From positions 31,377 to 95,376 of the forward strand of contig CAKOHW010000002.1 of assembly GCA_934086185.1 (NCBI GenBank): 64,000 bases of DNA, given 5' to 3'. The DNA is from an uncultured Bacilli bacterium. GTDB taxonomy: Bacteria; Bacillota_I; Bacilli_A; RF39; UBA660. The position numbers and the translations under genes are program-made. The first letter of the stretch is position 1. Every line of letters begins with the position of its first letter. The notes under the pieces were generated by a model that made no database searches, had not been told where the DNA came from, and saw only the letters and a program-made list of their open reading frames with translations. Positions 13,328 to 56,444 of this stretch are shown one piece after another.

Positions 13328-15874
13328 TTATTTACATAATCGTTTTAATTCATTATTAATAAATTCTAATCTATTCTTTTCTAATTCTAACGCTTCTCTA
13401 TCTTTCATTACTACTTCTTTAGGAGCTTTATTTACATAATTTTCATTACTTAATAATTTTTCACGTCTTCCTATACTATTTAATAAAGTATCTTTTTCTT
13501 TTTCTAATACACTTATTTCATTATCAATATTACTACTATTATCAAAATAAATACTAATATCATAATCATATAAATTTACATTTACTTTATCATTATATGC
13601 AGATTTATTAACAACTTTATCATTTAATTTTAATAAATCAAATAATAACTTATTTTCTACATTTGTTATAACTTCAAATTCTTTACCACAATTAATATCA
13701 TGTAATTTATTTCTAAATAATGTTACATATTCTAATAATTCTTTTATTTCTTTTTCTTCTTTAGTATATTCAAAATCTCTATCATATTCTGGATACTTAC
13801 TAATCATGATAGACTCACTATCTTTATTAGGCAACATCTTATATATTTCCTCAGTTACATAAGGCATAAATGGATGTAACATTTTTAATATATTAATTAA
13901 TACAGTTAACAATACAGACTTAGTAGTATCATTTTGATTAAATTTACTCATTTCTATATAATTATCACAAAAATCTGTCCATATGAAATCATATAATGTT
14001 GAACCAACTATATTAAAATCATACTTTTCCATATGTTTAGTAACTAAAGTAATAGTACTATTCATTTTACTTAAAATATATTTATCTTGTTTATCTAAAT
14101 TATCATAAGTAAAATTATCCATATCAAAATCTTCCACATTCATTAATACATAACGTGATGCATTCCATAATTTATTAATGAAATTCCATACACCTTTAAC
14201 TTTTTCTTCATCATATCTTAAATCTTGTCCAGGTGCAGAACTACTTGCTAAGAAAAATCTTAATGAATCAGCTCCATATTCATCAATAACATCCATAGGA
14301 TCTACTCCATTACCAAGACTTTTAGACATTTTTCTTCCAATTTTATCTCTAATTAAACCATGTATTAAACAATCTTTAAATGGTCTTTTATCAGTTAAAT
14401 ATAATCCTTGGAATACCATTCTACATACCCAAAAGAAAATAATATCATACCCAGTAACTAAAACATCAGTTGGATAATATTTTTCCAAGTCACTAGTCTT
14501 ATCTGGCCATCCAAAAGTACTAAAAGGCCATAAAGCACTTGAAAACCATGTATCTAATACATCTTCATCTTGTACCCATCCATCTTCACTTGGAGCAGTT
14601 TCACTTACATAAACTTCATCGCCTTTATACCAAACTGGTATTCTATGTCCCCACCATAATTGACGAGAAATACACCAATCATGACAATCTTCCATCCAAT
14701 GATTTAATATTTTTTCAAATCTTTCTGGAACAAAATTAACTTTTTCTTTACTGTTTTTTTGAGTATCTAATACTCTTTTTGCCAAAGTTTCCATACGTAC
14801 AAACCATTGTTTAGATAAATATGGTTCTACCATAACTCCAGTACGTTCAGAATGTCCTACTGAATGTGTTATAGGTTCTATTTCAATTAATAATCCACTA
14901 TTTTCTAAATCTTCAACTAATCTTTTTCTACATTCAAATCTATCTAAACCAGAATATATACCTGCATTATCATTCATAGTACCATCTGGATTTAATACTT
15001 TTATACGTTCAAGATTATGTCTTTCTCCTACTTCAAAGTCATTAGGATCATGTGCTGGAGTAATTTTAACTACACCTGTACCAAATTCAGGATCAGCATG
15101 CAAATCAGCAATAATAGGAATTTTTTTATTAACTATTGGTAATATTACATACTTTCCAACATACTCACTATAACGTTCATCATTTGGATTAACTGCAACA
15201 GCAGTATCTCCAAATAATGTTTCAGGTCTAGTTGTAGCAACACGTAAATACTTTTCAGTCCCTTCTATATAATATTTTAAATGATAAAATGCACCTTCTA
15301 CATCTTTATATATAACTTCTTCATTAGATAATGCAGTTTTTGCTTCAGGATCCCAATTAATAATACGTTCTCCTCTATAAATTAAACCTTCATTATACAT
15401 TTTTACAAATGTTTTAGTAACTGCTTTATTTAAACCTTCATCTAAAGTGAAACGTTCTTTTGAATACGCTAAAGATAAACCTAATTTACCCCATTGACTT
15501 CTTATATTAGAAGCATATTCTTCTTTCCATTTCCAAGCCTCTTTTAAGAATCCTTCACGTCCTAATTCATATTTATTTATTCCTTCACTCTTTAATCTTG
15601 CAACAACTTTAGCCTCAGTCGCTATAGCAGCATGATCCATTCCAGGTAACCATAAAGTATCAAAACCTTGCATTCTTTTAAATCTAATTATAATATCTTG
15701 TAAAGTAGTATCCCATGCATGTCCTAAATGTAATTTACCAGTTACATTAGGAGGTGGAATAACTATAGAAAATTTACCTTTATTATTATTTGTAGGTTCA
15801 AAATATCCTTTACCTTTCCAATTTTCATACTTTCCTTCTTCTACACTTAAATGATTATATTTCTTATCTAACAT
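13328..15874 (-). CDS. valS: valyl-tRNA synthetase
   Basis: 848 aa. HIGH region [18 protein letters not shown] motif, C-terminal coiled coil. Confidence 0.97.
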
Positions 15875-16595
15875 AACTATTCACCCTTTCATCAATATAC
15901 TTATTAACATAATCAAAATATTCTTTAAACATCTCTTTATTAATAATTTGACTATATATCTTATCAATAAGTTTATTATCTTTCAAATGTTTAAAAGAAT
16001 AATCATAATTTAAATCAAATACAAAAGCCAAATATAATAATACTTTATCATTTAAACTCTTAACATCTTTATAACTAATAACTTTTCTATTATAAAAATC
16101 ATCTTTAATCTTATCACTAATAGGTTCATTACATTCCATTATTAACTCTTTATCAATACTAAAAAGATAAAATATATCTAACTTATCAGCATCTCTAACA
16201 ACTTTACAAATCTTTTTATTATGTTCACTTATATTAGTAGGTATAAAAGCTTTATTATGATACTTAATAACATCATAAATTTCATCATACATACTAATAT
16301 CTTTTTCATAATCTAATATTTCACTATTACCAAATAATAAAGAAACACCCAAATCTCCATGATCTATAGAATGTATATCACTATAAGTTTCATAATCTTT
16401 CCACTGAGTAAATCTCCCATAATCATGTAATAAACCACTCACAGTACATATATGTTCATCCTTAATATCAAAATTAGATTTTTTAGCAATAGCAGTTGCA
16501 ATATCCATAACTCTTAAAGAATGTTCATATTTATACTTAATCTCTCTTATATTCAAATCAAATTTTTTAACATAATCATAAAATACTTCTTTCAT
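15864..16595 (-). CDS. HD-domain phosphohydrolase
   Basis: HD motif ([10 protein letters not shown]…DHGDLG). Its stop overlaps the valS start by 11 nt, suggesting translational coupling. Confidence 0.75.
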
Positions 16596-16616: not shown

Positions 16617-16830
16617 AAAAAAACACGTATATTTCTAAGGACGAAATACCGTGTTACCACCTTAATTCATGTATAATAATACATCTCAATACTTTAACGC
16701 AGTTAACGTAATATTCTACTAAATTCAAATATTCTGCTCCATCGCTACCTTCTATTAATTCATTTATTAGTTTACACCAACCACTAACTCTCTATAAAAC
16801 AAATTAATATACTCCTCAACTTCATTGCAT
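16617..16830 (-). promoter_or_regulatory. T-box leader controlling the HD-valS operon
   Basis: Minus strand shows the stem I motif AGAGAGUUAGUGGUUGGUG (about 16775-16795). The T-box sequence AAUUAAGGUGGUAACACGG lies at about 16649-16667. It overlaps the terminator ACACGGUAUUUCGUCCUUAGAAAUAUACGUGU + U7 (16617-16655). Upstream promoter TTGAAA(16861-16866)-17-TATAAT(16838-16843). Candidate Val specifier GUA at 16746-16748. Confidence 0.85.
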
Positions 16831-16931
16831 TTTCTATATTATAAATTATTTATTTTATTTTTTCAATAAAAACTTATTGAGTTATAAATTATTTTATTAT
16901 ATAATAATTCTAGAATAGAAAGAGGTGTAAT

Positions 16932-18335: not shown

Positions 18336-18358
18336 AAAGCCATAAAAGGCTTTTTTAA
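18334..18358. terminator. bidirectional terminator between the ATPase gene and paralog P1
   Basis: AAAAAGCC-ATAAAA-GGCTTTTTT between convergent genes. Confidence 0.6.
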
Positions 18359-20244
18359 TTTTCTAAAATTTTATACGGATTATCTATTGTTCCATCTCCA
18401 CTCAATAATTGTGAACCAGTAGCTAAAGTAATTGAAGGACGAACAGTTGCAAAAGTTTCTTTAGATTCAAGAGCAAGTAAACTATTATCTATATTTACAT
18501 AAGCAACACTATCACTATATCCATCGAAGAAAAATGAACGAGACAAAGTCCAATATATAGTTTGTGAGTTAGTATATAAATAATTTCCTCTACATGCATT
18601 ATATACTTCGAATGCAATATTTCCAGCATATATAATTTCATCCGCTGTTAATGTTCCTATATAATCACTTACACTATCTTCTTCACTTGAACATTTAAAC
18701 GTAGCAGTTTTATCTCCACCTACACCCATCATTCTTTTTCCTACCAAATAAAGATATCCACTTTTATTATTTTCTAATGTTAATGCTTCATCTGTTGTTA
18801 ATAATGCACCTGTATCATTACTATATTTATAACCATCACTGCCTCCCAAACACCACTTTTCATTTTTTAAATATAATTTCTTATCTTCTAATCCACTTGA
18901 TATATACCATGTTTTTAATGTTGTATATAATCCTCCACTATAATTTTCATAATCAGCATAATATTTGCTATTAATTGTTTTATAACCATATGCTATTTTT
19001 GCCCCATTATTTATTAAAGCAGATGTTGTATCTGATGATGTTATTGTACTACATAACCCCTCTTTTGCTAAGATTATTTTTATACTTCCATCACCTTCTA
19101 CACGTACAACTCTCCAACACATATTATTAAATTCTATATAATTATCTTTTACTCCACCCCTATAATAATAACTATAACCATAATCATCTTCTGCCATAGA
19201 TAATGTTGATTCTGTCGGATATGATACTGCTAACATTTTTTTGATTTTTATTGATACTGAACTTGTACTGCTTACTGGAGCTTCCGTTACTTTATATATA
19301 TTTTCTAAATCCGTCGTTGTTTTTTTAGTATCTGTACTTGATGAATTATTATATACATAATTATCTACTAAATATTTTCCAATTAATGTTTTATTACATG
19401 TTCCGTCATTATACTTGCATGTAGAAACTCCTGTTAATGTGAATTTACCAGTACTTTCATCAACTTTATACCCAGTTCCATATGTCCAATAGTAACCCTG
19501 ATATGTTGTTGAGACATTATATATTAATCTTTCATCTATTTCTTCAGTTGCTCTATCAGTATAGTATTTATAATTAGGTATTTCTTGAGCCGGAATTGTT
19601 AACGGAGTTGCACTAAATGTTGTCCCATTATTTTCTAACTTTGCATTATTTATTATTGCATAAGCTAACGTTGTTGGTTCATATGGCATAAATTCCCCAT
19701 TAATATTCTTACTAAATATTTGTAATTTTGCTTGTAATATTTTTCCCATATCCACACTTTGATCTGTACCTGTATCTTTATATGTGAATGTAAATGTATA
19801 TGTATGTGTTTTTTTAGGCTCTATTTCATTTGTAACTAACTCTTTTATGCCGTTTGGAAAGGTTGTCTCTATTGTTACTTTGTTACATGCTATAGTTCCG
19901 TTAGTACTACAGTCTAATGTATATTTTATATCATCAGTTCTTTCAAATGTATTTACAACATCTATTAAATATAAACCATATTCTATATTTACATTTCCTT
20001 CGTTTTTTACTGTGAATGTTTTAGTATATTCAGTATTACTTGGAAATAAGTTTTCTCCACCTACTACCCCATCACTACCATCATTATATACTAATAATAA
20101 ATCTGCCGCTGTTACATCTATAGATTTATTATTAGTGTTTCCTTGTATTCTTGTTAAATAATATCCATATGTTAAACCAATAAGTGCTAAACTTACTATA
20201 GATATTCCTACAATGCTTATTATTATTTTTTGTTTTCTACTCAT
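18355..20244 (-). CDS. paralog P1: exported protein with a TasA/camelysin-like head (divergent type a) and tail type alpha
   Basis: N-terminus MSRKQKIIISIVGISIVSLALIGLTYGYYLTRIQGNTN resembles a SipW-type signal. Head motifs …KTFTVKNEGN… The C-terminal module …DDYGYSYYYRGGVKDNYIEFNNMCWRVVRVEGDGSIKIIL…YWTLS…VRPSITL… ends in GDGTIDNPYKILEN. Confidence 0.9.
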   Translation of the reverse strand: MSRKQKIIISIVGISIVSLALIGLTYGYYLTRIQGNTNNKSIDVTAADLLLVYNDGSDGVVGGENLFPSNTEYTKTFTVKNEGNVNIEYGLYLIDVVNTFERTDDIKYTLDCSTNGTIACNKVTIETTFPNGIKELVTNEIEPKKTHTYTFTFTYKDTGTDQSVDMGKILQAKLQIFSKNINGEFMPYEPTTLAYAIINNAKLENNGTTFSATPLTIPAQEIPNYKYYTDRATEEIDERLIYNVSTTYQGYYWTYGTGYKVDESTGKFTLTGVSTCKYNDGTCNKTLIGKYLVDNYVYNNSSSTDTKKTTTDLENIYKVTEAPVSSTSSVSIKIKKMLAVSYPTESTLSMAEDDYGYSYYYRGGVKDNYIEFNNMCWRVVRVEGDGSIKIILAKEGLCSTITSSDTTSALINNGAKIAYGYKTINSKYYADYENYSGGLYTTLKTWYISSGLEDKKLYLKNEKWCLGGSDGYKYSNDTGALLTTDEALTLENNKSGYLYLVGKRMMGVGGDKTATFKCSSEEDSVSDYIGTLTADEIIYAGNIAFEVYNACRGNYLYTNSQTIYWTLSRSFFFDGYSDSVAYVNIDNSLLALESKETFATVRPSITLATGSQLLSGDGTIDNPYKILEN

Positions 20245-20332: not shown

Positions 20333-20400
20333 AGTAGAACATCTAATTGATGGCTACCGTTTTTTTGGTAAGTGCTAATTATTTAATTAGCACTATTTTT
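20333..20400 (+). ncRNA. candidate cis-antisense sRNA (antitoxin-like), copy 1
   Basis: Starts about 7 nt after TATACT. Hairpin GTGCTAATTA/TAATTAGCAC (20372-20393) + TATTTTT acts as a plus-strand terminator. Complementary to the 3' end of the minus-strand small-ORF RNA. Confidence 0.45.
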
Positions 20401-20565
20401 ATGACCAAAACTCCCTATTATCTATATAGAAGGATGAATAGGAATACAATTACCATAATGATAATTGAACAGTCTAAAAACCTTATAATGAAAGTTTTTA
20501 CTTTCAAGCTAAGTACCTACTTTTTCTACTTTAAAAATAGAAGGTAGCCATCAAACCAAATGTTC
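20337..20565 (-). other. structured small-ORF RNA (type I toxin-like mRNA), copy 1
   Basis: Promoter TTGAAA(20596-20601)-16-TATTAT(20574-20579). The 5' arm GAACAUUUGGUUUGAUGGCUACC pairs with the 3' arm GGUAGCCAUCAAUUAGAUGUUC: about 22 bp with 3 G-U pairs, which works only in the minus-strand RNA. Confidence 0.55.
20418..20507 (-). CDS. 29-aa hydrophobic peptide (type I toxin candidate), copy 1
   Basis: TTG start sits in the hairpin UGAAAGU-AAAA-ACUUUCA. Peptide MKVKTFIIRFLDCSIIIMVIVFLFILLYR. Conserved with copy 2 through mostly synonymous or conservative changes. Confidence 0.5.
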   Translation of the reverse strand: MKVKTFIIRFLDCSIIIMVIVFLFILLYR

Positions 20566-32796: not shown

Positions 32797-34719
32797 TTAA
32801 TTCTCTAAAATTTTATACGGATTTGCCTTTGTTCCATTTCCGCTTGAAATTTGTGTATTTGACTTAAAATTAATTACCGGTCTAAATGAGTAGTCATCAT
32901 TAACTCTTCCTCCACTAAATAATCCAGAACTATCAAGCAGATAAACATAATCACCACCGCTTTGATACATAGTAGGTAAGGCATCACTACGATTGCTATC
33001 AAAATCGCTAGGTGCTAAAGTCCAAAACTCTAAGTGACTTGATTTTTGATAATTATTTATTAAATAATAAGCAAGATTTTCAGTATCACCATTATCTCCA
33101 CCTGCAAAAGAAATTTCATCTGCTGTTAAAGTCCCAACATACATATTTGTATTGTCTGCAAACTTTTTCATATTTGTACCCTTACATTTTAGTGTTGGTT
33201 CTTCTGCTGTTCCTTTTCTCAAACGAGTACTAGAATCATAATAAAACCCTTCATTCGCAATTTGTTCATCTAATATTTCAACACTAGTTAATTCTTTTGA
33301 ACTACTAGAGATTAAATACGCTTTATTATTTAAACACCAGTCTCCAACCTTTAAATAAGATAAATAACTCGTTAATAATCCAATTTGAAAATTTTTAAAT
33401 GCAGTTACCATTGATTTATCATTATTTGTTTGTCCGTTTAAATAATTCATTAAATATCTTATACCTCGGTTTTTTTTACCATCAGATGCAGTTAATGTAT
33501 TTGCTGCATATTGTGTATATCCAAAATATCCAGTCTTTATAGACCCACCAGTTGTAGTTGGTATATCCCAATTTCCATCAGCCGTTTCACAAGTACTATC
33601 TTGATCTTCTAATATTAATTTAATACTTCCATCGCCAACAATACGAACCACTTTCCAACACATTCCTGCAAAATTAACATAATTATCAGTTACATTTCCT
33701 CTAAAGTAATAAGAATTACCATAGTCATCAATTGCTAAACTTAATGTTCTTTCATTTTCTCCATTTATTTCTTTTGCTGGTTTAGTTAATGGTGTTTCAC
33801 TATATATCGTTCTTCCTTCTCCACCTTTTTTAGCATTGTTTATTATTACATCTTTCAATAAAATTTTACTATCACTTATTTTTATTACATTTATTGTTAC
33901 AGTACTACCCGTTATTGTTATATCAGCATCTGCTATATTCTTTTCATCGTTGTATGTTATATTTGATCCTGATGCTGATGGTTCTCCTTTTGATACATTT
34001 AGTGTTGTTTGTTTTGTTGTTGTAGTCTTTCTATTTTTTATTGTCACTTTGTGTGTATCTGGTTCTATTCCAATAAACTTATATTTTCCATCTACTATCT
34101 CACTTGTTTGTTCTTTACTATGTATTACTACATAATCATTTTCACTAGAATTAGTTACTGTTCCTTTTATTGTTAATGATTTAGTATCAAATATATCTAT
34201 CTTCGCCTCTAATGTTTTACCCATATCAATACTTTGGTCTACATTCATTTCTCTATATTCTACTTTTATTACATATGTTTGTACTTCATCTTTATTTATT
34301 TGATTTTCTATTATATATGAGTTTTCATTTGGAAATGTACTTTCACTTACTCCATTACATGTTTTACCAGTTACACTACTAGAGCATGTTACTGTATACT
34401 TAACATCATCTAATCTTGTAAATGTATTTATTACATTTACTAATCCTACACTATAACTATCTATATCACTGCTACCACTATTTGTTACTGTAAATGTTTT
34501 TGTAGGTAAAGTTGTACCCGGCACTATATTTGTTCCAGTTATTACATCTTTATTATCGCTATATTCTAATTTTAAATCTGCTGTTGTTACACTTATTGAT
34601 TTTGTATTAGTATTACCTTGTATTCTTGTTAGGAAATATGCGTATGTTAATCCTAATAATGCTAATAATACTATTGCTATTCCTACTACGCTTACAATAA
34701 TTTTTTGCTTTTTATTCAT
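32797..34719 (-). CDS. paralog P3: head type b, shared stalk, tail type beta
   Basis: Head and stalk are near-identical to P5 through about residue 297. The tail (…NYVNFAGMCWKVVRIVGDGSIKLILEDQDSTC…) is homologous to the P6 tail. Ends GNGTKANPYKILEN. Confidence 0.9.
   Translation of the reverse strand: MNKKQKIIVSVVGIAIVLLALLGLTYAYFLTRIQGNTNTKSISVTTADLKLEYSDNKDVITGTNIVPGTTLPTKTFTVTNSGSSDIDSYSVGLVNVINTFTRLDDVKYTVTCSSSVTGKTCNGVSESTFPNENSYIIENQINKDEVQTYVIKVEYREMNVDQSIDMGKTLEAKIDIFDTKSLTIKGTVTNSSENDYVVIHSKEQTSEIVDGKYKFIGIEPDTHKVTIKNRKTTTTKQTTLNVSKGEPSASGSNITYNDEKNIADADITITGSTVTINVIKISDSKILLKDVIINNAKKGGEGRTIYSETPLTKPAKEINGENERTLSLAIDDYGNSYYFRGNVTDNYVNFAGMCWKVVRIVGDGSIKLILEDQDSTCETADGNWDIPTTTGGSIKTGYFGYTQYAANTLTASDGKKNRGIRYLMNYLNGQTNNDKSMVTAFKNFQIGLLTSYLSYLKVGDWCLNNKAYLISSSSKELTSVEILDEQIANEGFYYDSSTRLRKGTAEEPTLKCKGTNMKKFADNTNMYVGTLTADEISFAGGDNGDTENLAYYLINNYQKSSHLEFWTLAPSDFDSNRSDALPTMYQSGGDYVYLLDSSGLFSGGRVNDDYSFRPVINFKSNTQISSGNGTKANPYKILEN
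33828..34719 (-). repeat. head-b + stalk DNA block (P3 copy)
   Basis: About 0.9 kb matching 43741-44629. Antisense ORFs 33836-34135 and 43746-44045 are near-identical. Boundaries are approximate. Confidence 0.7.
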
Positions 34720-34769: not shown

Positions 34770-36644
34770 TCATTCACTAATTAATTCACTTTTTGAGATA
34801 AATCCTTTATATAATTTTGCACCATATACCGATCCATTTCTATTAGAATTGGCAACATTAGTTTTAGACAACATATAAACTGCAATTTTAGAAACTGTTA
34901 TTGAATCATTTGTAATAAAATGCATTACATATTTATCATCATCAACCCATGTATATTTTACTTGAGTTAAATAGTTGTTATTTCCAAAATTGTTAGCAAA
35001 TATAGCAGGATAAATATCAGGATATTCTTCAGTTCCAAATTTTCCATTTAAATATAATGTATATGGTGTATTAGGTTCTAAATTAGAACTTAAATTATAT
35101 TCTTTAATCTTTGTCGTTGTTGCTCCATTATAATTTAATACTTGTTCTTCACCATTAGTTATAAGATTTGTTTTTGCTACGTTATTATTAGAAATAATTG
35201 GAAATCTTGCAGCCATAACCGCTCCATTTGAATATCCATTATTAGAACCAGCGTCAGTAATATCAGAAAATAAATTAATAACTTGAAAGCCAACCAAATT
35301 ATTAGTTGTATTATTAGCATGGTAAACTAATAATCTATCTCCAGGCAATCTATCAACCACAAATGATGCATGAGTAATACCTTTATAATAATTTGATTCA
35401 AATGTAGAAAAGAATATAATATCACCAGGTTTTACATTACTTACATCGTTATTTAATTTATAAGAATAACCATTTTCATCAGCATAGTGTGCTAAATCAT
35501 TAGCCAAATATCTTCCTTCTCTGTATTTATTTGTTGGTAAAGTAATACCATAATCAAAGGATTTTATATTAGTATTATTTGAATTATATCTTGAATCATT
35601 ATAAGTTATACCCCCTAATACTAAACTAAGAAAACTAGAACAATCTAACTCATTTGTAGTAGTAGTATCAAAGGCAGTCTTTGCTGAAGCAAACGTTAAA
35701 TTAGCCATATTATTTCTGTAAGTTTGTGCTACACTGAACATATCAACAATAGTACCTAAAGAATAAGGTGCTAAAAAAGATTCATCATCATAATACGTTA
35801 TTCCACCAATTTCAATAACGTTATTAGAAACATCTAAATCAATTTTTATATTTTTTATATTAGAAGTAATAGTAATAACATTTGCATCTATACTAGCTGT
35901 ATTTCCTTTTTTGATTGTTATTTCTTTACTTTCTTTTACAGTTCCCTGTTTATCTTTTACATATATTGTATGAGTCCCTGGTTCTACTGCTGCTATCAAA
36001 TATTTATTATCTGTTGTTATCATACTTTTTCTCGGGTTGCTATGTAATTCAACATAATCTCCCTCACTTACATTTGTTACTGTTCCTGTTACATCTACAA
36101 TATCTTGTAAATTATAGATTTGTACTCGTGCTGATACTTTCTTATTCATATCATCACTTTGGTCTACATTCATTTCTTTATATGTTACTGTTAATTTATA
36201 TGTTTGTGTTTCTCCTACATCTATTGAATTAGTTACAATTATTCCTGCTAATTTTGGAAATGTTGTTTCATTAACTCCCTTACATGTTTTATTTTCTTTA
36301 CTACTTGTACAAGTTAATGTATAAACCATATCATCAGGCCTTGTTAATTCATTTACTAATTCTTCTAAATATACAGCATAGTTATTTACAGTTGCATTAC
36401 CATTATTTGTTACTGTAAATTCTTTGTCAGTTAATGTAGTACCTGGCATAATATTATTACTTGTTATAGTACCATTACCATCTGCATAAGTTAACTCTAG
36501 ATTAGCAGTTGTTACACTTATTGATTTTTCATTAGTATTCCCTTGTATTCTTGTTAAAAAGTATGCATATGTTAATCCTAACAATGTTAAAAGTACTATT
36601 GTTATTCCTACTGCACTAACAACTATCATTTTTTTTCTTTTCAT
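34770..36644 (-). CDS. paralog P4: head type c fused to an NlpC/P60-like cysteine peptidase module
   Basis: ATG at 36642-36644 with an AAGAGGT SD is preferred over the ORF-track start at 36662. The first ~252 aa are near-identical to P6. The tail has LDCSSFLSLVLGG (Cys), GDIIFFS…THASFVV (His). 50-nt gap to P3. Confidence 0.85.
   Translation of the reverse strand: MKRKKMIVVSAVGITIVLLTLLGLTYAYFLTRIQGNTNEKSISVTTANLELTYADGNGTITSNNIMPGTTLTDKEFTVTNNGNATVNNYAVYLEELVNELTRPDDMVYTLTCTSSKENKTCKGVNETTFPKLAGIIVTNSIDVGETQTYKLTVTYKEMNVDQSDDMNKKVSARVQIYNLQDIVDVTGTVTNVSEGDYVELHSNPRKSMITTDNKYLIAAVEPGTHTIYVKDKQGTVKESKEITIKKGNTASIDANVITITSNIKNIKIDLDVSNNVIEIGGITYYDDESFLAPYSLGTIVDMFSVAQTYRNNMANLTFASAKTAFDTTTTNELDCSSFLSLVLGGITYNDSRYNSNNTNIKSFDYGITLPTNKYREGRYLANDLAHYADENGYSYKLNNDVSNVKPGDIIFFSTFESNYYKGITHASFVVDRLPGDRLLVYHANNTTNNLVGFQVINLFSDITDAGSNNGYSNGAVMAARFPIISNNNVAKTNLITNGEEQVLNYNGATTTKIKEYNLSSNLEPNTPYTLYLNGKFGTEEYPDIYPAIFANNFGNNNYLTQVKYTWVDDDKYVMHFITNDSITVSKIAVYMLSKTNVANSNRNGSVYGAKLYKGFISKSELISE
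35888..36644 (-). repeat. head-type-c DNA block (P4 copy)
   Basis: About 0.75 kb near-identical to 54002-54758. Antisense ORFs 35915-36232 and 54029-54346 are near-identical. Confidence 0.7.
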
Positions 36645-36861
36645 ATTTGTACCTCTTTTCATATTTTAATATCTTTATAATTTAATTATATATAACATCT
36701 AATGATTATTAATGTCAAAAAATGTCATAACACACAAAAAAAATTATATAACTACTTCTATTAATAAATTTAAAATCAGAAAAAATAAATTATATACTAT
36801 TTACTTATCACAACATAAAATTCAAACTCATACTCATAAGAGTACTTTCTACTCTATTTAT

Positions 36862-36918: not shown

Positions 36919-36990
36919 AGTAGAACATCTAATTGATGGCTACCTGTTTTTTTGAGATATGTGCTAATTATCTAATTAGCACATTTTTTA
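36919..36990 (+). ncRNA. candidate cis-antisense sRNA (antitoxin-like), copy 2
   Basis: Downstream of TATACT. Terminator ATGTGCTAATTA-TC-TAATTAGCACAT + T6 (36959-36990). Confidence 0.45.
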
Positions 36991-37150
36991 AACCAAAACT
37001 CCCTAAAATCTTCGTAAGAGGATATATAGAAAGATGATTAACATTATGATAATCAAACGGTCTAAAAACCTTATGATGAAAGTATTTACTTTCAAACTAA
37101 GTACCTCCTAACTATTTAAAAATAGAAGGTAGCCATCAACTTAAATGTTC
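36923..37150 (-). other. structured small-ORF RNA (type I toxin-like mRNA), copy 2
   Basis: The 5' arm GAACAUUUAAGUUGAUGGCUACC pairs with the 3' arm GGUAGCCAUCAAUUAGAUGUUC. The anti-SD UACCUUCUA pairs with the SD UAGGAGGUA (9 bp). TATTAT -10 at 37159-37164. Confidence 0.55.
37003..37095 (-). CDS. 30-aa hydrophobic peptide (type I toxin candidate), copy 2
   Basis: AGGAGG SD 8 nt before the TTG. Peptide MKVNTFIIRFLDRLIIIMLIIFLYILLRRF. Confidence 0.5.
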   Translation of the reverse strand: MKVNTFIIRFLDRLIIIMLIIFLYILLRRF

Positions 37151-42475: not shown

Positions 42476-44641
42476 CTAACTTTCTATAATTTTGTATGGA
42501 TTTGAAATAGTACCATTGCCACTTAATAATTTAGTATTTGATAAAAGCACTATCATAGGACGAATACCTATATTATTATTGTTATAATTAGAATCATAGA
42601 TATTTAAATTAAAATTACCTTGCGAAAAAATATAATAAACTCCATCAACACCAAACTCCCCACTATAAGTTGCTCTTGATAAAGACCAATATTTTGTTTG
42701 TGCATTATCATACAAATAATAATTCATATTGTTGAAATCCATTGCACCACCTGCATAAACCATTTCATCTGCTGTTATTGTTCCTATATAATCATCTACA
42801 CTATCTTCTTTATCTGAACATTTATATGATGATTTTTTTTCTTCGCCTTTACCATTCAATCTCTTGGCGGCCATGTAATATACTGTTTGGTTTAGATCCG
42901 GGTATCCTGTAGATTTTCCATTTTCATCAAATATATAGTCAGTTTTTCCGCCTAAACACCATTTTTCATTTTTTAATAGTGATTTTTTATTTTCTAGTCC
43001 GCTTGATATATACCATGTTTTTAATGTTGAGTATAATCCTCCACTATAATTTTTATAATCAGCATATTTCTTGCTATTAACTGTTTTATAACCGTATACA
43101 ACTGTAGCGGCATTATTTATTAAAGCTGATTTGGTATCTGATGATGTTATTGTACTACACAATCCTTCTTTGGCTAAGATTATTTTTATTGAGCCGTCAC
43201 CTTCAATTCTTACAACTCTCCAACACATATTATTGAATTCTATATAATTATCTACAACTCCACCTCTATAATAATAACTTGTTCCATAATCATCTTCTGC
43301 TATTGATAATGTTGATTCTGCTGAATATGATTTTGCTGATAATTTTTTTGTTTTCATTGTTATTGAACTTGTACTACTTGCTGGTGCTGTTGTCACTTTA
43401 TATATATTTGATAAATTCGTTGTTGTTTTTATAGTATCTGTGCTTGATGAATTCGAATTTGCATAATCTGATACCAAATATTTTCCTACTAATGTTGTAT
43501 TACATGTACCATCATTATATTTACATGTTGCTACTCCCGTTAAGGTAAATTTGCCAGTACTTTCATCTATTGTATAACCTGTTCCATATGTCCAGTAATA
43601 TCTTTGATATGTTGTTGTTATACTAATTGATGTTTCTGTTGTTGCTTCATCTACTCGATCAGTATAATATTTCGAAGATGTTTGTTGTGCAGGTGTTGTT
43701 AATGGTATCATTCTAAATGTTGTTCCATTTTTTTCTTGTTTTGCATTGTTTATTATTGCATCTTTCAATAAAATTTTACTATCACTTATTTTTGTTACAT
43801 CTATTGTTACAGTACTACCTGTTATTGTTATATTAGCATCTGCTATATTTTTTTCATCATTGTATGTTATATTTGAACCGGATGCTGCTGGTTCTCCTTT
43901 TGATACATTTAGTGTTGTTTGTTTTGTTGTTGTAGTCTTTCTATTTTTTATTGTTATTTTATGTGTATCTGGTTCTATTCCAATAAACTTATATTTTCCA
44001 TCTACTATCTCACTTGTTTGTTCTTTACTATTGATTACTACATAATCATTCTCACTAGAATTTGTTACTGTTCCTTGTATAGTAAGTGCCTTTGTATCAA
44101 ATATATCTATCTTTGCTTCTAATGTTTTACCCATATCATCACTTTGGTCTACATTCATTTCTTTATATTCTACTTCTATTACATATGTCTGTACTTCATT
44201 TTTATTTATTTGATTCTCTAATATATATGAATTTTCATTTGGAAATGTTGTTTCACTTACACCGTTACATGTTTTACCAGTTACACTACTAGAGCATGTT
44301 ACTGTATATTTTATATCATCTAATCTTGTAAATGTATTTATTACATTTACTAATCCTACACTATAACTATCTACATTATTATCTCCACTATTTGTTACAG
44401 TAAATGTTTTAGTTCCTAATGTTGTACCTGGTACTATATTTGTTCCAGTTATTACGTCACTATTATCACTATATGTTAGTTCTAGATTAGCAGTTGATAT
44501 ACTTATTGATTTATTATTAGTGTTTCCTTGTATTCTTGTTAAATAGTATCCATATGTTAAACCAATAAGTGCTAAACTTATTATACTTATTCCTACAATA
44601 CTTATTATTATCTTATTTTTTCTACTCATATGTAACATCAC
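42476..44641 (-). CDS. paralog P5: chimeric copy (head type b + P3-type stalk + P1-type tail alpha)
   Basis: Residues 5-235 are near-identical to P2, and similarity to P3 continues to about residue 300. The remainder parallels P1 (…YYWTYGTGY…DESTGKFTLTGV…CWRVVRIEGDGSIKIILAKEGLCSTITSSDT…). Probable start is ATG at 44629 or 44638. Confidence 0.9.
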   Translation of the reverse strand: MMLHMSRKNKIIISIVGISIISLALIGLTYGYYLTRIQGNTNNKSISISTANLELTYSDNSDVITGTNIVPGTTLGTKTFTVTNSGDNNVDSYSVGLVNVINTFTRLDDIKYTVTCSSSVTGKTCNGVSETTFPNENSYILENQINKNEVQTYVIEVEYKEMNVDQSDDMGKTLEAKIDIFDTKALTIQGTVTNSSENDYVVINSKEQTSEIVDGKYKFIGIEPDTHKITIKNRKTTTTKQTTLNVSKGEPAASGSNITYNDEKNIADANITITGSTVTIDVTKISDSKILLKDAIINNAKQEKNGTTFRMIPLTTPAQQTSSKYYTDRVDEATTETSISITTTYQRYYWTYGTGYTIDESTGKFTLTGVATCKYNDGTCNTTLVGKYLVSDYANSNSSSTDTIKTTTNLSNIYKVTTAPASSTSSITMKTKKLSAKSYSAESTLSIAEDDYGTSYYYRGGVVDNYIEFNNMCWRVVRIEGDGSIKIILAKEGLCSTITSSDTKSALINNAATVVYGYKTVNSKKYADYKNYSGGLYSTLKTWYISSGLENKKSLLKNEKWCLGGKTDYIFDENGKSTGYPDLNQTVYYMAAKRLNGKGEEKKSSYKCSDKEDSVDDYIGTITADEMVYAGGAMDFNNMNYYLYDNAQTKYWSLSRATYSGEFGVDGVYYIFSQGNFNLNIYDSNYNNNNIGIRPMIVLLSNTKLLSGNGTISNPYKIIES
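43741..44629 (-). repeat. head-b + stalk DNA block (P5 copy)
   Basis: See the P2 and P3 copies. Boundaries are approximate. Confidence 0.7.
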
Positions 44642-52595: not shown

Positions 52596-54758
52596 TTACG
52601 AAATTTCGTAAGGGTTACTAATGGTCCCATCTCCACCAGTAATTTGTGTACTAGATTTTAAAGAAACTGCTGGACGGAACGAAAATGCACAATCAGTATT
52701 ATTCTCAACATTAACAAAATCAACTACACCACTATGATCTACATTAATTGCAGAATCATGATTATTATTAAAGTGGTAAGGCGACAAAGACCAAAACCAT
52801 AACGAATTTGTTTTTTGATAATCATTTATTAAATAATAATCTGGATTACTATATTTAGCTTTACCACCTGCATATACTATTTCATCTGCTGTTATTGTAC
52901 CTACATACATATCAGTATTATCTGCAAATTTATTCATGTTTGTTCCATTACATTTTAATATTGGTTCTTTTGTTTTTTTACCGTTTAAACGAACATATGA
53001 ATCGTAATAAAATAATGTATTTTTAACTTGTTTATCTAGTATTTCTTGACTAGTTAATGCTGTAGTATTATCACTACTAGTAGCATACGCTTTATCATTT
53101 AAACACCAATCACCTGCTTTTAATTTATCTAAATAATTTGCTAAAGGGCCTGTTTGGAAATTCTTAAATGCATATGCCATTGATCTGTCATCATATGATG
53201 GAATAAATGCACCACCATTTAAATAGTTCATTAAATATCTTGTACTTGAATTTTTTGTCCCATCAGAAGCAATTAATGTTTTTGCATCATGTTGAATATA
53301 TCCAAAATAGCCTTTTTTTAAAGATCCTCCAGTTAAAATAGGAATATTCCAATTTCCATCACTTGTTACACAAGTACTGTCTTGATCTTCCAATATTAAT
53401 TTTACGCTTCCATCACCTTCTATACGTACTATTCTCCAACACATTCCTGCGAAGTTTACATAATTATCTATTACATTTCCTCTATAATAATAACTAGTTC
53501 CGTAATCATCATTAGAAATCGATAATGAAGACTCATATTCTTTTTTTTCAACATCTACAATTGCTACTTTTGTACTTTTGCATGATTTAACATACCAAGT
53601 TTGAGGAACAACAGGATAAGATATATATTTTCCTACTATTGTATTACTACACTCAGATACAAAACTACCATCAGATGAAGTCATCCAAGGTCTTGCATCA
53701 TTTTCTGTTGAACCATAATACCATTCTGATTGTGTACTCATATCGAGTTCTTGTTCTTCAAATTTACCACTATCTCTTGTATAACTTATTTCTTCTGCAA
53801 CTTTTGTTTTTGGAGTATTTAAAAATTCTGTACCATTTGCATTTGTTTTTGCACTTGTGTATATTGCACTTGCAAGTGTTCCTTCATCAAATGGATTATA
53901 ATCTTTTGTTTCACCAATATCTATTGTTAATGTTGAAGCAATTGATTTTATATCAACATTAACTGTTTGTGAATCGTTTGTTACTGTTATATTTGTTCCA
54001 TTTACACTTGCTGTATTTCCTTTTTTGATTGTTATCTCTTTACTTCCTTTTACAGTTCCTTCCTTATCTTTTACATATAGTGTATGTGTTCCTGGTTCTA
54101 CTGCTGCTATTAAATATTTATTATCTGTTGTTATCATACTTTTTCTTGGATTACTATGCATCTCTACATAATCTCCAGCACTTGCATTTGTTACTGTTCC
54201 AGTTACATCTACAATATCTTGTAAATTATAAATCTGTACTCGTGCTGATACTTTCTTATTCATATCATCACTTTGGTCTACTCCCATTTCTTTATATGTT
54301 ACTGTTAATTTATATGTTTGTGTTTCTCCTACTTCTATTGAATTAGTTACAATTATTCCTGCTAATTTTGGAAATGTTGTCTCACTTTTACCTGTACATG
54401 ATCCATTTTCTTTACTACTTGTACAAGTTAGTGTATAAACCATATCATCAGGCCTTGTTAGTTCATTTACTAATTCTTCTAAATATACAGCATAGTTATT
54501 TACAGTTGCATTACCATTATTTGTTACTGTAAATTCTTTGTCAGTTAATGTAGTACCTGGCATAATATTATTACTTGTTATAGTACCATTACCATCTGCA
54601 TAAGTTAATTCTAAATTTGCAGTTGTTACACTGATACTCTTATCATTAGTGTTTCCTTGTATCCTTGTTAAAAAGTATGCATACGTTAATCCTAATAATG
54701 CTAATAATACTATTGTTATTCCTACTACACTAACAATTATTTTTTGTTTTTTGTTCAT
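52596..54758 (-). CDS. paralog P6: head type c, unique middle, tail type beta
   Basis: The first ~252 aa are near-identical to P4. The tail …NYVNFAGMCWRIVRIEGDGSVKLILEDQDSTC… is homologous to P3. Ends GDGTISNPYEIS. Confidence 0.9.
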   Translation of the reverse strand: MNKKQKIIVSVVGITIVLLALLGLTYAYFLTRIQGNTNDKSISVTTANLELTYADGNGTITSNNIMPGTTLTDKEFTVTNNGNATVNNYAVYLEELVNELTRPDDMVYTLTCTSSKENGSCTGKSETTFPKLAGIIVTNSIEVGETQTYKLTVTYKEMGVDQSDDMNKKVSARVQIYNLQDIVDVTGTVTNASAGDYVEMHSNPRKSMITTDNKYLIAAVEPGTHTLYVKDKEGTVKGSKEITIKKGNTASVNGTNITVTNDSQTVNVDIKSIASTLTIDIGETKDYNPFDEGTLASAIYTSAKTNANGTEFLNTPKTKVAEEISYTRDSGKFEEQELDMSTQSEWYYGSTENDARPWMTSSDGSFVSECSNTIVGKYISYPVVPQTWYVKSCKSTKVAIVDVEKKEYESSLSISNDDYGTSYYYRGNVIDNYVNFAGMCWRIVRIEGDGSVKLILEDQDSTCVTSDGNWNIPILTGGSLKKGYFGYIQHDAKTLIASDGTKNSSTRYLMNYLNGGAFIPSYDDRSMAYAFKNFQTGPLANYLDKLKAGDWCLNDKAYATSSDNTTALTSQEILDKQVKNTLFYYDSYVRLNGKKTKEPILKCNGTNMNKFADNTDMYVGTITADEIVYAGGKAKYSNPDYYLINDYQKTNSLWFWSLSPYHFNNNHDSAINVDHSGVVDFVNVENNTDCAFSFRPAVSLKSSTQITGGDGTISNPYEIS
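54002..54758 (-). repeat. head-type-c DNA block (P6 copy)
   Basis: See the P4 copy. Confidence 0.7.
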
Positions 54759-54834: not shown

Positions 54835-54906
54835 AAAAAAATTATATAATTATTAACCCCCCCCCCGACCAAACTTTTGTTCGGGAGAGAATTAGGCTAT
54901 ATAATT
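54835..54906 (-). promoter_or_regulatory. conserved leader hairpin + U-tract, P6 copy (contains the C10/G10 tract)
   Basis: Same element. The inner stem is changed to CCCGAAC…GGUCGGG, and the G10 run pairs with CUCUCCC. Confidence 0.5.
54857..54866. repeat. homopolymeric C10 tract (G10 on the coding strand)
   Basis: Ten consecutive C in an extremely AT-rich genome. It replaces the 6-nt GCTCCT/CCCTCT of the paralogous leaders. Confidence 0.9.
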
Positions 54907-54959: not shown

Positions 54960-55010
54960 ATTTTACCAAATCATTTTATCATTTACAATATTAAAATTTT
55001 GGTTTATACT
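54960..55010. promoter_or_regulatory. back-to-back divergent promoter module (P6 copy)
   Basis: Minus strand: TTGTAA(54983-54988)-17-TGgTAAAAT(-10 at 54960-54965). Plus strand: TTTACA(54982-54987)-17-TATACT(55005-55010). Confidence 0.55.
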
Positions 55011-55016
55011 TAATTT

Positions 55017-55082
55017 AGTAGAACATTCATTTATTTAAATGCCTACCGTTTGTGGTGGCACACGTACTCGTGTGCTTTTGTT
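55017..55082 (+). ncRNA. candidate cis-antisense sRNA, copy 3 (divergent)
   Basis: Same promoter and the same first ~12 nt (GTAGAACAT). Different body. Terminator GCACACG-TACT-CGTGTGC + TTTTGTT (55058-55082). Confidence 0.4.
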
Positions 55083-55274
55083 ATGTAATAAACAAAACAA
55101 TTAACACATTATGTACTAGTGCCAGTTAAATAAACCTTTACCCCCTGAATAGAAGAAGTATTAGTGTACCCAACATGATTAATATTAATAATCAAATGGA
55201 GGTTTGATTACGCATACTATCACACCCCTTTACTACTTAAATAGTTTGAGGTAAGCACTAAAAAATGAATGTTC
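55021..55274 (-). other. structured small-ORF RNA, copy 3 (same architecture, different sequence)
   Basis: Promoter TTGAAT(55305-55310)-16-TATTAT(55283-55288). The 5' arm GAACAUUCAUUUUUUAGUGCUUACC pairs with the 3' arm GGUAGGCAUUUAAAUAAAUGAAUGUUC (about 25 bp with bulges and G-U pairs). Confidence 0.5.
55138..55215 (-). pseudogene. 25-codon hydrophobic ORF interrupted by an in-frame TGA (toxin-like, possibly inactivated)
   Basis: AAGGGG SD 9 nt before the ATG. Reads MRNQTSI-TGA-LLILIMLGTLILLLFRG-TAA. TGA at 55192-55194. Confidence 0.35.
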
Positions 55275-55361
55275 GAGTAGTTATAATACTCATATATTTT
55301 ATTTATTCAATCATTTCGACAAAACATTAAAAAAAAGATATCTTACATTAGATATCTAATT

Positions 55362-56444
55362 TTATTTAACCTTTTTTAAAGTATAATCATTCTTTAATTT
55401 CTTATCTTTAGCATAATCAAATAAACTAATCAAACTATAATCATTATCCATTTCAACTAAATCAGTATATTTATTAATTAATTCTATATCTTCTTTAGTT
55501 TTCTTTCTAAATCCTAGTTCACTATTACTATCACTAATAATACCATATTCAGGATCTCTTCCAGTACCAGCTGGTTTAATTTTAAAATTATTAATTATAA
55601 TATTATTTTCCTTTATAGCACTCATATAATTATTAATTAAATCTTCATTACTAACATCTATTTCATTTAATACATATTGATTAAATGGATATTTAATATA
55701 GTTTAACTCTTTAGTATAAGATTCATATGCACTAGTAAAACTATTTTTTATAATACCTTTAGTATCAACATTATCATAAAAATCTTTTAATGCTTCTCTA
55801 TTTTTTAATATTAAACTTATTTGTCTACTATAAGTACTTCTTAATGCATTTAATAATGTACTAGAAATATCTTCATTACTATTTAACTTACTTACTAAAT
55901 TTAAAACATCATTACTTAGATAAGCTTTATAATCTATTAAACTAACAAATTCATTAATTAATGCTTTATCTTCATCAGTTTTCTTTCTAAATCCTAATTC
56001 ACTATTATCACGTATAATACCATATTCAGGATCTCTTCCATTACCAGCTGGTTTAATAGATAACATAGATATCATACAATTATTTTCTCTTATTAAATTA
56101 ACTAATTCCTCACTAGTTAAATTATATTTAATTTCTAAATTGTTCTTTGATATTTCATAAACATTAGGAAAACCAATCTTTATAATATCATTTTTATCTT
56201 TACTATTAAAAAATTCATTAATTCTTTTCATAGTAGGTATTAAATAACTCATTTGTTTTTGATAAATATTATTTAAAATATTATCTACCCTACTATCATT
56301 AGTAGAATAACTAACACTAGTTGATAAATCATTACCAGCATATACTCCTACACCATTTAAAATAGTAGTACCTATAACAAATGATGCTAAAATCATTTTA
56401 CCTTTTTTTGTAATTCTTTCTTTATTAATAACTTTCTTTTTCAT
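55362..56444 (-). CDS. secreted protein with an internal tandem duplication (360 aa)
   Basis: Signal/anchor at the N-terminus. Two ~150-aa modules each ending IKPAG(N/T)GRDPEYGII…SELGFRKKT.ED..LIN. Confidence 0.65.
   Translation of the reverse strand: MKKKVINKERITKKGKMILASFVIGTTILNGVGVYAGNDLSTSVSYSTNDSRVDNILNNIYQKQMSYLIPTMKRINEFFNSKDKNDIIKIGFPNVYEISKNNLEIKYNLTSEELVNLIRENNCMISMLSIKPAGNGRDPEYGIIRDNSELGFRKKTDEDKALINEFVSLIDYKAYLSNDVLNLVSKLNSNEDISSTLLNALRSTYSRQISLILKNREALKDFYDNVDTKGIIKNSFTSAYESYTKELNYIKYPFNQYVLNEIDVSNEDLINNYMSAIKENNIIINNFKIKPAGTGRDPEYGIISDSNSELGFRKKTKEDIELINKYTDLVEMDNDYSLISLFDYAKDKKLKNDYTLKKVK

Follow-up and report, generated by a model that had tools for sequence, protein, structure and literature searches.

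A stretch of 64,000 nucleotides (nt) from an uncultured Bacilli bacterium of the human gut (GenBank assembly GCA_934086185.1, contig CAKOHW010000002.1, positions 31,377 to 95,376; hereafter, the window) carries three copies of a small element, and we consider it probable, at roughly 70%, that the third of these, at 54982-55310, is a type I toxin-antitoxin (TA)-like module with a null allele of the toxin gene. The features of the type I class are found in the sequence or in silico, namely, a hydrophobic open reading frame (ORF) of fewer than 60 amino acids (aa) with a Shine-Dalgarno (SD) sequence, an overlapping antisense gene and an occluded ribosome-binding site (RBS). We infer that both RNAs would be transcribed, that the peptide encoded by intact alleles would be toxic and that the antisense RNA would neutralize it. 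Each of the three copies lies directly upstream of a member of a group of paralogous genes, here denoted P. Elements of the kind of copies 1 and 2 are referred to as type A and those of the kind of copy 3 as type B, whereas L-numbers (L001, etc.) denote contigs from other assemblies that carry the locus, the element or relatives of P. The three copies are as follows:

20337..20565, minus strand: copy 1, type A, with the intact toxin ORF MKVKTFIIRFLDCSIIIMVIVFLFILLYR (type A profile)
36923..37150, minus strand: copy 2, type A, with the intact toxin ORF MKVNTFIIRFLDRLIIIMLIIFLYILLRRF at 37003-37095 (type A profile)
54982-55310, toxin-sense on the minus strand: copy 3, type B module, the third copy in the window

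Three elements with shared flanks

The 22-mer TATACTTAATTTAGTAGAACAT occurs on the plus strand of the window at exactly three sites (20321, 36907 and 55005), where 0.03 would be expected, and the toxin-side promoter block TATGAGTATTATA....GAACAT is also found at three sites, confirming the original prediction, made from the letters of the window, that copy 3 shares its flanks with copies 1 and 2. In an alignment of the three copies, the flanks are near-identical and the interior of copy 3 is divergent. The minus strands of copies 1 and 2 carry AGGAGG (GUAGG in copy 1), a TTG start codon and a hydrophobic ORF of 29-30 aa (for example, MKVNTFIIRFLDRLIIIMLIIFLYILLRRF and MKVKTFIIRFLDCSIIIMVIVFLFILLYR). 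Copy 3 is flanked by the terminator of a gene for a 360-aa protein (55362-56444, minus) on one side and by the start of the P gene P6 (720 aa, 52596-54758, minus) on the other.

A putative type B toxin gene interrupted by a genuine stop codon

The coding part of copy 3 comprises the following features, all on the minus strand:

55138..55215, minus strand: type B toxin ORF, interrupted, MRNQTSI-TGA-LLILIMLGTLILLLFRG-TAA, with AUG at 55213-55215 and TAA at 55138-55140 (translation)
55192..55194, minus strand: premature TGA at codon 8, AGA (Arg) in intact alleles (allele comparison)
55223..55228, minus strand: SD sequence GGGGUG, 7 nt 5′ of the AUG (sequence)
55189..55210, minus strand: perfect hairpin UAAUCAAA-CCUCCA-UUUGAUUA with a CCUCC loop, created by the same substitutions as the stop (fold)

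The SD-preceded ORF with its in-frame TGA is thus present as originally described. Intact type B orthologues encode a 25-aa peptide, MRNQTFERLLILIMLSTLILLLFRG, in which a polar head is followed by a single membrane-spanning stretch that leads to a basic tail; those at this very locus encode MRNQTFERLLIL(L/I)MLSTLILLLFRG. Most differences among the intact type B alleles leave the amino acid unchanged (TTC/TTT, GAA/GAG, TTA/CTT), and the ratio of nonsynonymous to synonymous polymorphism (pN/pS) comes to ~0.22 over 36 type A pairs and to ~0.29 over 3 type B pairs, so that the ORF behaves as a real coding gene. In the window allele, the stop at codon 8 allows only a harmless heptapeptide to be made.

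That TGA is a genuine stop in this genome, as had been claimed, is borne out by 43 ORFs of at least 200 codons, which together contain 17,563 codons (102 of them TGG) and no in-frame TGA, five of these ORFs ending in TGA. Its decoding as tryptophan is ruled out because TGA terminates ordinary long ORFs, and a programmed frameshift was rejected because the other frames are short or non-hydrophobic, the +1 frame stopping after two codons and the -1 frame giving MIININHVGY.... The stop was not produced by a TGG-to-TGA change, as first supposed, given that intact alleles carry AGA at 55192-55194. It was made by a cluster of five changes within seven bases, TTCGAAAGA to TCCATTTGA, through which the window reads TCC ATT TGA where intact alleles read TTC/TTT GAA/GAG AGA (F-E-R); outside this cluster, type B elements share 95% identity. 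At four of the five positions, the new base is the one that type A has in the alignment (CCGTTTGATTAT), suggesting micro-conversion with a type A copy as the donor; the turning of a quasi-palindrome into a perfect palindrome suggests template switching as a possible origin. The sequences are consistent with both routes.

Variation among type B elements is focused in codons 6-13, where three haplotypes differ at 5-6 positions, the other ~230 nt being almost invariant. Each haplotype (window 55189-55215, codons 1-9; L001, L007, L014 and L018) is predicted to form a different hairpin around the start codon.

Null and intact alleles at the orthologous locus

Orthologous loci were collected from 14 further gut-metagenome samples through exact matches to the two proteins encoded next door, GreA and the 360-aa protein. 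The alleles found at the locus, the window included, are distributed as follows:

Type B, TGA allele: window, L003, L004, L005, L009, L010 and L040-L043 (10/15 contigs)
Type B, intact: L001 and L007 (2/15 contigs)
Type A, intact: L006 (1/15 contigs)
Type A, frameshifted by +1 A: L002 and L008 (2/15 contigs)

No other allele is as common at this locus as the TGA null allele. Intact type B elements also occur at other genomic sites (L014 and L018), bringing to four the contigs with an intact type B ORF and upholding the proposal that copy 3 is an inactivated copy of a second toxin type built on the same scaffold. Altogether, there are 20 distinct element sequences, 12 of type A (10 intact) and eight of type B (four intact), such that an intact hydrophobic ORF of 25-30 aa is found in 14 of the 20. 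Single-base insertions inactivate type A in L002 and L008 (the same +A in two independent assemblies) and in L012; null toxin alleles therefore exist in both types.

Further lesions accompany the TGA. The SD is changed from GGGGTG to GTGGTG in three of the contigs with this allele (L005, L009 and L010), and in L015 the TGA allele has lost another 4 nt and bears additional lesions. Judging from these sequences, the window copy is a null allele showing apparent signs of relaxed constraint. The remaining way to rescue the window copy would be decoding of the TGA by read-through, recoding or frameshifting, yielding the full-length toxin. The frame downstream of the stop is indeed still open and nearly unchanged, but this explanation is scarcely credible: no TGA is read through in the long ORFs surveyed and ordinary genes end in it, the codon replaced is AGA rather than TGG, the alternative frames lead nowhere, and the linked weakening of the SD argues that translation is no longer under selection. 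The dependence on read-through contemplated in the original prediction is accordingly unlikely, TGA being the normal stop, the SD being weakened in half of the TGA-allele variants and L015 being decayed.

Depending on the strain, this one chromosomal site holds type A or type B between identical promoter flanks, a genuine replacement of A by B as alleles of one locus. The TGA allele is linked to P alleles of 703, 720, 750, 751, 624 and 439 aa. The exchange of types together with the association of one TGA allele with many P alleles places the element at the edge of a recombining island.

The prevalence of the TGA allele raises the question of whether selection retains it as a cassette that is silent or supplies the antitoxin alone, and that might confer immunity to an incoming type B toxin or preserve the structured RNA and the sRNA to regulate the P promoter. 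The allele accounts for 10 of the 15 contigs and is linked to at least six P alleles, with the promoter of the small antisense RNA (sRNA), its terminator and the closing stem of the toxin RNA (see below) all intact, and the hairpin with the CCUCC loop built by the substitution cluster recalls the toxicity-suppressing anti-SD mutations in aapA3 (PMC6733600). Nevertheless, we regard this explanation as improbable: drift or hitch-hiking in a recombining island can give a high frequency, the SD mutation and the L015 deletion resemble ongoing decay, and, with type B 95% identical overall, the retention of the sRNA says little. A related and similarly doubtful conjecture is that types A and B are orthogonal specificity cassettes exchanged via their near-identical flanks, with antitoxin-keeping nulls favoured at the most recombinogenic site as an anti-addiction device. 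If so, the adjacent hypervariable and apparently phase-variable P island could be swapped without post-segregational killing.

A predicted antisense RNA overlapping the toxin RNA at its 3′ end

Consensus scans of the region around copy 3 yielded the following signals:

55283..55310, minus strand: predicted promoter of the toxin-sense RNA, TTGAAT-16 nt-TATTAT, sigma-70-type, just past the terminator of the upstream gene for the 360-aa protein (consensus scan)
54982..55010, plus strand: predicted promoter of the antisense (antitoxin) RNA, TTTACA-17 nt-TATACT, 10/12 consensus positions; same site in 3/3 copies
55057-55076, plus strand: terminator GGCACACG-TACT-CGTGTGCT followed by TTTTGTTATG (consensus scan)
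55017..55083, plus strand: predicted antitoxin sRNA of ~65 nt, overlapping the toxin RNA at its 3′ end (promoter/terminator geometry)
54960..54988, minus strand: promoter-like site for P6, TTGTAA-17 nt-TG-TAAAAT, TG-extended (consensus scan)

A site equivalent to the toxin-sense promoter is present in copy 1, and the sequence block containing it is kept in all three copies. On the plus strand, the in silico prediction of an antisense promoter with an intrinsic terminator 47-50 nt downstream applies to 3/3 copies. The terminator is the sole terminator-like site in the intergenic region of copy 3 and has equivalents in copies 1 and 2, as expected from the original prediction of a common plus-strand hairpin; in the three copies, its T run is on the plus strand only. 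It is this pairing of promoter and terminator that leads us to predict an antisense RNA of ~65 nt. Such an RNA would cover the 3′ arm of the toxin RNA and the adjacent hairpin with perfect complementarity, leaving the SD and AUG outside, and would be nearly a copy of the 5′ arm of the toxin RNA.

The calculated energies of the cognate duplexes between sRNA and toxin RNA are -122 and -110 kcal/mol, the former for type B. Cross-pairs are far weaker, -29.5 kcal/mol for type B sRNA with type A toxin RNA and -42 kcal/mol for type A sRNA with type B toxin RNA, so that the two types should not cross-regulate. The promoter-like site for P6 lies back-to-back with the sRNA promoter, with overlapping -35 boxes, and its -10 box reads TATAAT in L002, L005 and L010.

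Folding of the toxin RNA and a computed SD switch

The predicted toxin-sense RNA and its pairing ends are delimited as follows:

55021..55274, minus strand: predicted toxin-sense RNA, GAACAU to AUGUUC, 254 nt (nhmmer match to the type B profile, 55274-55021; 3′ end not defined by any terminator)
55250..55274, minus strand: 5′ arm of the closing stem, GAACAUUCAUUUUUUAGUGCUUACC, the inner end of which overlaps the anti-SD ACCUC (fold)
55021..55047, minus strand: 3′ arm of the closing stem, GGUAGGCAUUUAAAUAAAUGAAUGUUC, wholly covered by the antisense RNA (fold)

A minus-strand RNA of 257 nt (55019-55275) has a computed minimum free energy of -83.2 kcal/mol (z = -8.7). The first 25 nt and the last 27 nt of the copy 3 RNA form a closing stem of 25 base pairs (bp; -27.7 kcal/mol), and that of copy 2 comprises 23 bp of other sequence (-32.4 kcal/mol); in both cases, 0/1000 shuffles were as strong. 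Non-cognate combinations of the arms reach -11 to -20 kcal/mol only, in agreement with the earlier description of a stem of ~25 bp with new sequence on both arms. In the consensus fold of the 12 type A variants, the closing stem, the start-codon hairpin and the terminator hairpin are kept, with double-sided changes at six pairs.

Partition-function folding of the type B RNA reveals a computed switch at the SD. The probability that the SD is unpaired is 0.04-0.08 in nascent RNA, where its main partner is the 5′ ACCUC; in the full-length RNA, in which the 5′ arm gives up A23-C25 to the closing stem, the value is 0.34-0.39; and with the 3′ arm blocked, as it would be by the antisense RNA, it is 0.04-0.07, the partner being again the 5′ ACCUC. 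The pairing of UACCUC with GGGGUG noticed at the outset is thereby recovered as ACCUC (55248-55252) with GGGGU (55224-55228), at probabilities of 0.4-0.98, depending on transcript length, in nascent RNA and within about 0.7-0.98 in 3′-blocked RNA.

The model that follows from these computations is one in which, during transcription, the 5′ ACCUC would pair with the SD and keep translation off, until emergence of the 3′ arm would let the closing stem compete for the same 5′ nucleotides and partly free the SD. Binding of the antisense RNA to the 3′ arm would release the 5′ arm, so that the SD could be closed again, and would produce a duplex of ~65 bp suited to RNase III cleavage. The 5-nt cluster of the window allele leaves both the predicted gene for the antisense RNA and the computed fold of the toxin RNA untouched. 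Among described systems, toxin mRNAs form metastable SD/anti-SD hairpins and 5′-3′ long-distance pairings, with a parallel in aapA3 (PMC6733600), and antitoxins overlapping the 3′ end recruit RNase III and remodel the RBS (PMC5848175).

At the copy 2 locus of other strains (L027, L030, L033 and L035; type A), the 5′ arm has diverged (GTTTGTCTTCC) with no compensation in the 3′ arm, and the closing-stem duplex is computed at about -14.5 kcal/mol versus about -32 kcal/mol. The toxin ORF of these strains is still intact, and the SD is predicted to remain paired with the 5′ anti-SD.

Relationship between types A and B

When DNA profiles of types A and B were run with nhmmer against all collected sequence, neither cross-matches nor a third type emerged. 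The peptides are 36-40% identical (shuffle p = 0.013, or 0.085 with segments preserved) and are built alike, with TF closing a polar head, then a single hydrophobic stretch and, last, a basic tail; at the DNA level, the interiors align better than 976/1000 dinucleotide shuffles. The claim that the interior of copy 3 is unrelated to those of the other copies thus holds as far as the DNA profiles fail to match each other, but not in the face of the weak similarity of both peptides and DNA (24/1000 shuffles). On the simplest reading of the sequences, types A and B would be two old paralogous lineages of one family, with the promoter flanks kept identical by constraint or recombination. It had also been suggested that the conservation of architecture with swapped cargo is unusual, which is overstated, considering that diverged multi-copy type I systems are the norm and that the peptides are weakly similar; the four SprG/SprF copies and the aapA/IsoA loci are multi-copy type I systems with diverged toxins and antitoxins (PMC6393307; PMC6733600).

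Genomic contexts and the association with P genes

The species is represented by the metagenome-assembled genome (MAG) CAKORH01, deposited as 'uncultured Bacilli bacterium' from a Hadza sample, which carries five copies of the element. A search of genome and metagenome collections for the exact flank pattern recovered this one species plus a further two metagenome contigs; five remaining matches lay in unrelated sequence and are attributable to chance. The element resides in at least seven gene contexts, with downstream genes including those for a P-type ATPase, a recombinase remnant and a 162-aa protein. Conversely, the P gene of L050 shares the 5′ leader but has no element; in the other regions examined 5′ of diverged P homologues, the upstream sequence is too short. 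The variety of contexts and the existence of P without the element indicate an autonomous multi-copy module rather than a leader of P, and the reading of the element as a leader peptide or attenuator for P was rejected since the two occur independently.

A broader version of the latter idea is that the element functions purely as an RNA, a leader or insulator of the P gene acting as a processing site or attenuator, with the short ORF being incidental. The minus strand has no terminator from the element to P6, RNase III could act on the 25-bp closing stem and the ORF is broken in 6/20 variants. We nonetheless consider this explanation highly improbable, because the pN/pS values of 0.22-0.29 and the mostly synonymous differences between intact alleles speak for a coding function, the ORF is headed by a conserved SD and start codon, and the element exists without a downstream P, which has its own promoter downstream of the element.

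A more substantial, albeit still unlikely, alternative is that the element is a gene for a small membrane peptide with a cis-antisense regulator but not a TA module, for example, one for an accessory or regulatory protein tied to the P surface-protein genes. The position of all window copies 5′ of P paralogues, the back-to-back overlap of the sRNA and P promoters, the lack of homology to known toxins and the tolerance of a null allele at high frequency would all fit such a role. Against it stand the copies 5′ of the P-type ATPase, the recombinase fragment and the 162-aa protein, the P genes without the element and an anatomy that amounts to a type I signature, with a folded mRNA, a hidden SD, a 3′ antisense, diverged copies and frequent nulls (PMC6733600, PMC5848175).

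The P paralogues of the window, all on the minus strand, encode secreted proteins of 630-720 aa (18355-20244, 32797-34719, 34770-36662, 42476-44641 and 52596-54758) that share the N-terminal signal-like segment MNKKQKIIVSVVGITIVLLALLGLTYAYF and have >1,200 unnamed relatives in metagenomes; they match no Pfam or NCBIfam domain above cutoff. Upstream of P6, a tract of 10 C on the plus strand (10 G in the P6 sense; 54857-54866) separates a -35-like TTGGTC from TATAAT. Its length ranges from 8 to 10 among the near-identical loci (L001-L010 and L040-L043), with interruptions in L005 and L007, and the spacer grows from 18 nt at G8 to 20 nt at G10; other P genes have 6 G (L011 and L012) or 11 G (L049, a 42%-identical P homologue) in the same place. 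The tract is a candidate phase-variable promoter element for the surface protein. Between strains (L001-L010), the P6 locus is hypervariable, with P alleles of 703 to 751 aa and an insertion sequence (DDE_Tnp_1) in L005. The start of the P frame is degraded in L007, with an in-frame stop after four codons and the other frames stopped too, and large rearrangements join the P6 site to distant genes in L004, L007 and L009.

In L015, the type B copy with the heaviest decay is followed, ~350-450 nt downstream, by fragments of a serine-recombinase-like gene (MAIIVKVGVYCRLSDEDRDK...), which hints that at least one copy of the element may lie in a mobile-element remnant. Elsewhere in the window, a T-box leader (RF00230, 121.6 bits; 16634-16834, minus) precedes a gene for a 243-aa protein (15864-16595).

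Comparison with known type I systems

Judged by sequence, the family does not appear to be a member of any described toxin or antitoxin family. Searches with the 30-aa type A peptide against 1.84 billion representatives (HMMER) gave 0 matches, a result of low power given that the query is short and biased and that small ORFs are rarely called. The flank pattern had no exact match in viral contigs, blastn found no element in plasmids or phages, and the peptide strings had no match in published full text.

In mechanism, the element would be closest to the 3′-overlapping type I systems of Bacillus subtilis, with the addition of hok/aapA-like 5′-3′ pairing. The B. subtilis modules bsrG/SR4, bsrE/SR5, txpA/RatA and yonT/SR6 likewise reside in a Bacilli host and produce convergent RNAs with a 3′ overlap of ~65 nt (here predicted), a small hydrophobic peptide and a toxin mRNA with its SD in a structure; SR4, in particular, alters the RBS structure by binding at the 3′ end and makes an RNase III substrate (PMC5848175). 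They differ in that there is no similarity of toxin or RNA sequence, the peptides have 38-59 aa compared with 25-30 aa here, and none of the three window sites shows an evident prophage context. Peculiar to the present element is the central place of a 23-25-bp pairing between the extreme 5′ and 3′ ends and an antisense RNA that is almost a copy of the 5′ arm.

The resemblance to hok/Sok of Escherichia coli and aapA/IsoA of Helicobacter pylori lies in the long-distance 5′-3′ pairing that locks the full-length toxin mRNA, the SD/anti-SD hairpins predicted for the growing transcript, the presence of several diverged chromosomal copies and natural silencing mutations that include a new in-ORF anti-SD (PMC6733600). 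In those systems, however, the antisense RNA targets the 5′ untranslated region or RBS, whereas here the 3′ arm is covered, and their long pairing silences the mRNA until 3′ trimming, whereas the closing stem is here predicted to compete with the anti-SD. The par locus of Enterococcus faecalis (fst RNA I/RNA II) is similar in its Gram-positive host, convergent RNAs, a 5′ structure limiting ribosomes and a membrane peptide of ~30 aa. It has one shared bidirectional terminator, in contrast to the plus-strand-only T run of the present element, for which no minus-strand terminator was found, and a Pfam search gave no match to the hidden Markov model of the Fst family. SprG/SprF of Staphylococcus aureus and Ibs/Sib and Ldr/Rdl of E. 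coli also occur as paralogous copies of one architecture in which the toxin and antisense sequences differ (PMC6393307), making the pairing copy-specific. What sets types A and B apart is that their flanking promoters are virtually identical, that their interiors do not cross-match and that they replace each other at one site.

Several observations weigh against a type I module. A null as the majority allele is unexpected for a simply addictive module. The consensus scan found no intrinsic terminator for the toxin-sense RNA before the P gene, such that read-through into P6 is possible, and the opening of the SD predicted in the full-length RNA is partial only (about 0.36). No Rfam family was matched, neither at the gathering score nor at E values up to 10, which gave only chance-level hits, none of them to an antitoxin RNA, and the three peptides had no Pfam or NCBIfam match at E values up to 1. 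Finally, among GTDB representatives the element is found in one species-level genome only, and it is absent from the syntenic ytxH locus of the sister species (YtxH 75-84% identical); conservation across species can therefore not back the model.

Concluding remarks

The element described here does not open a new category of system: it would be an ordinary kind of system with a naturally disabled member. It would, though, represent a new, unannotated type I TA-like family in an uncultured, very AT-rich, spore-forming gut member of the Bacilli, a kind of genome in which modules consisting of a small ORF and an sRNA escape standard annotation. The locus offers a natural series of intact, nonsense, SD-weakened, frameshifted and deleted alleles, along with two types predicted not to cross-pair at one locus, which would serve as ready controls for toxicity and for the proposed switch, in which strand displacement by the antisense RNA would free the 5′ anti-SD. 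In the biology of this organism, the modules appear to mark the edges of hypervariable surface-protein islands.

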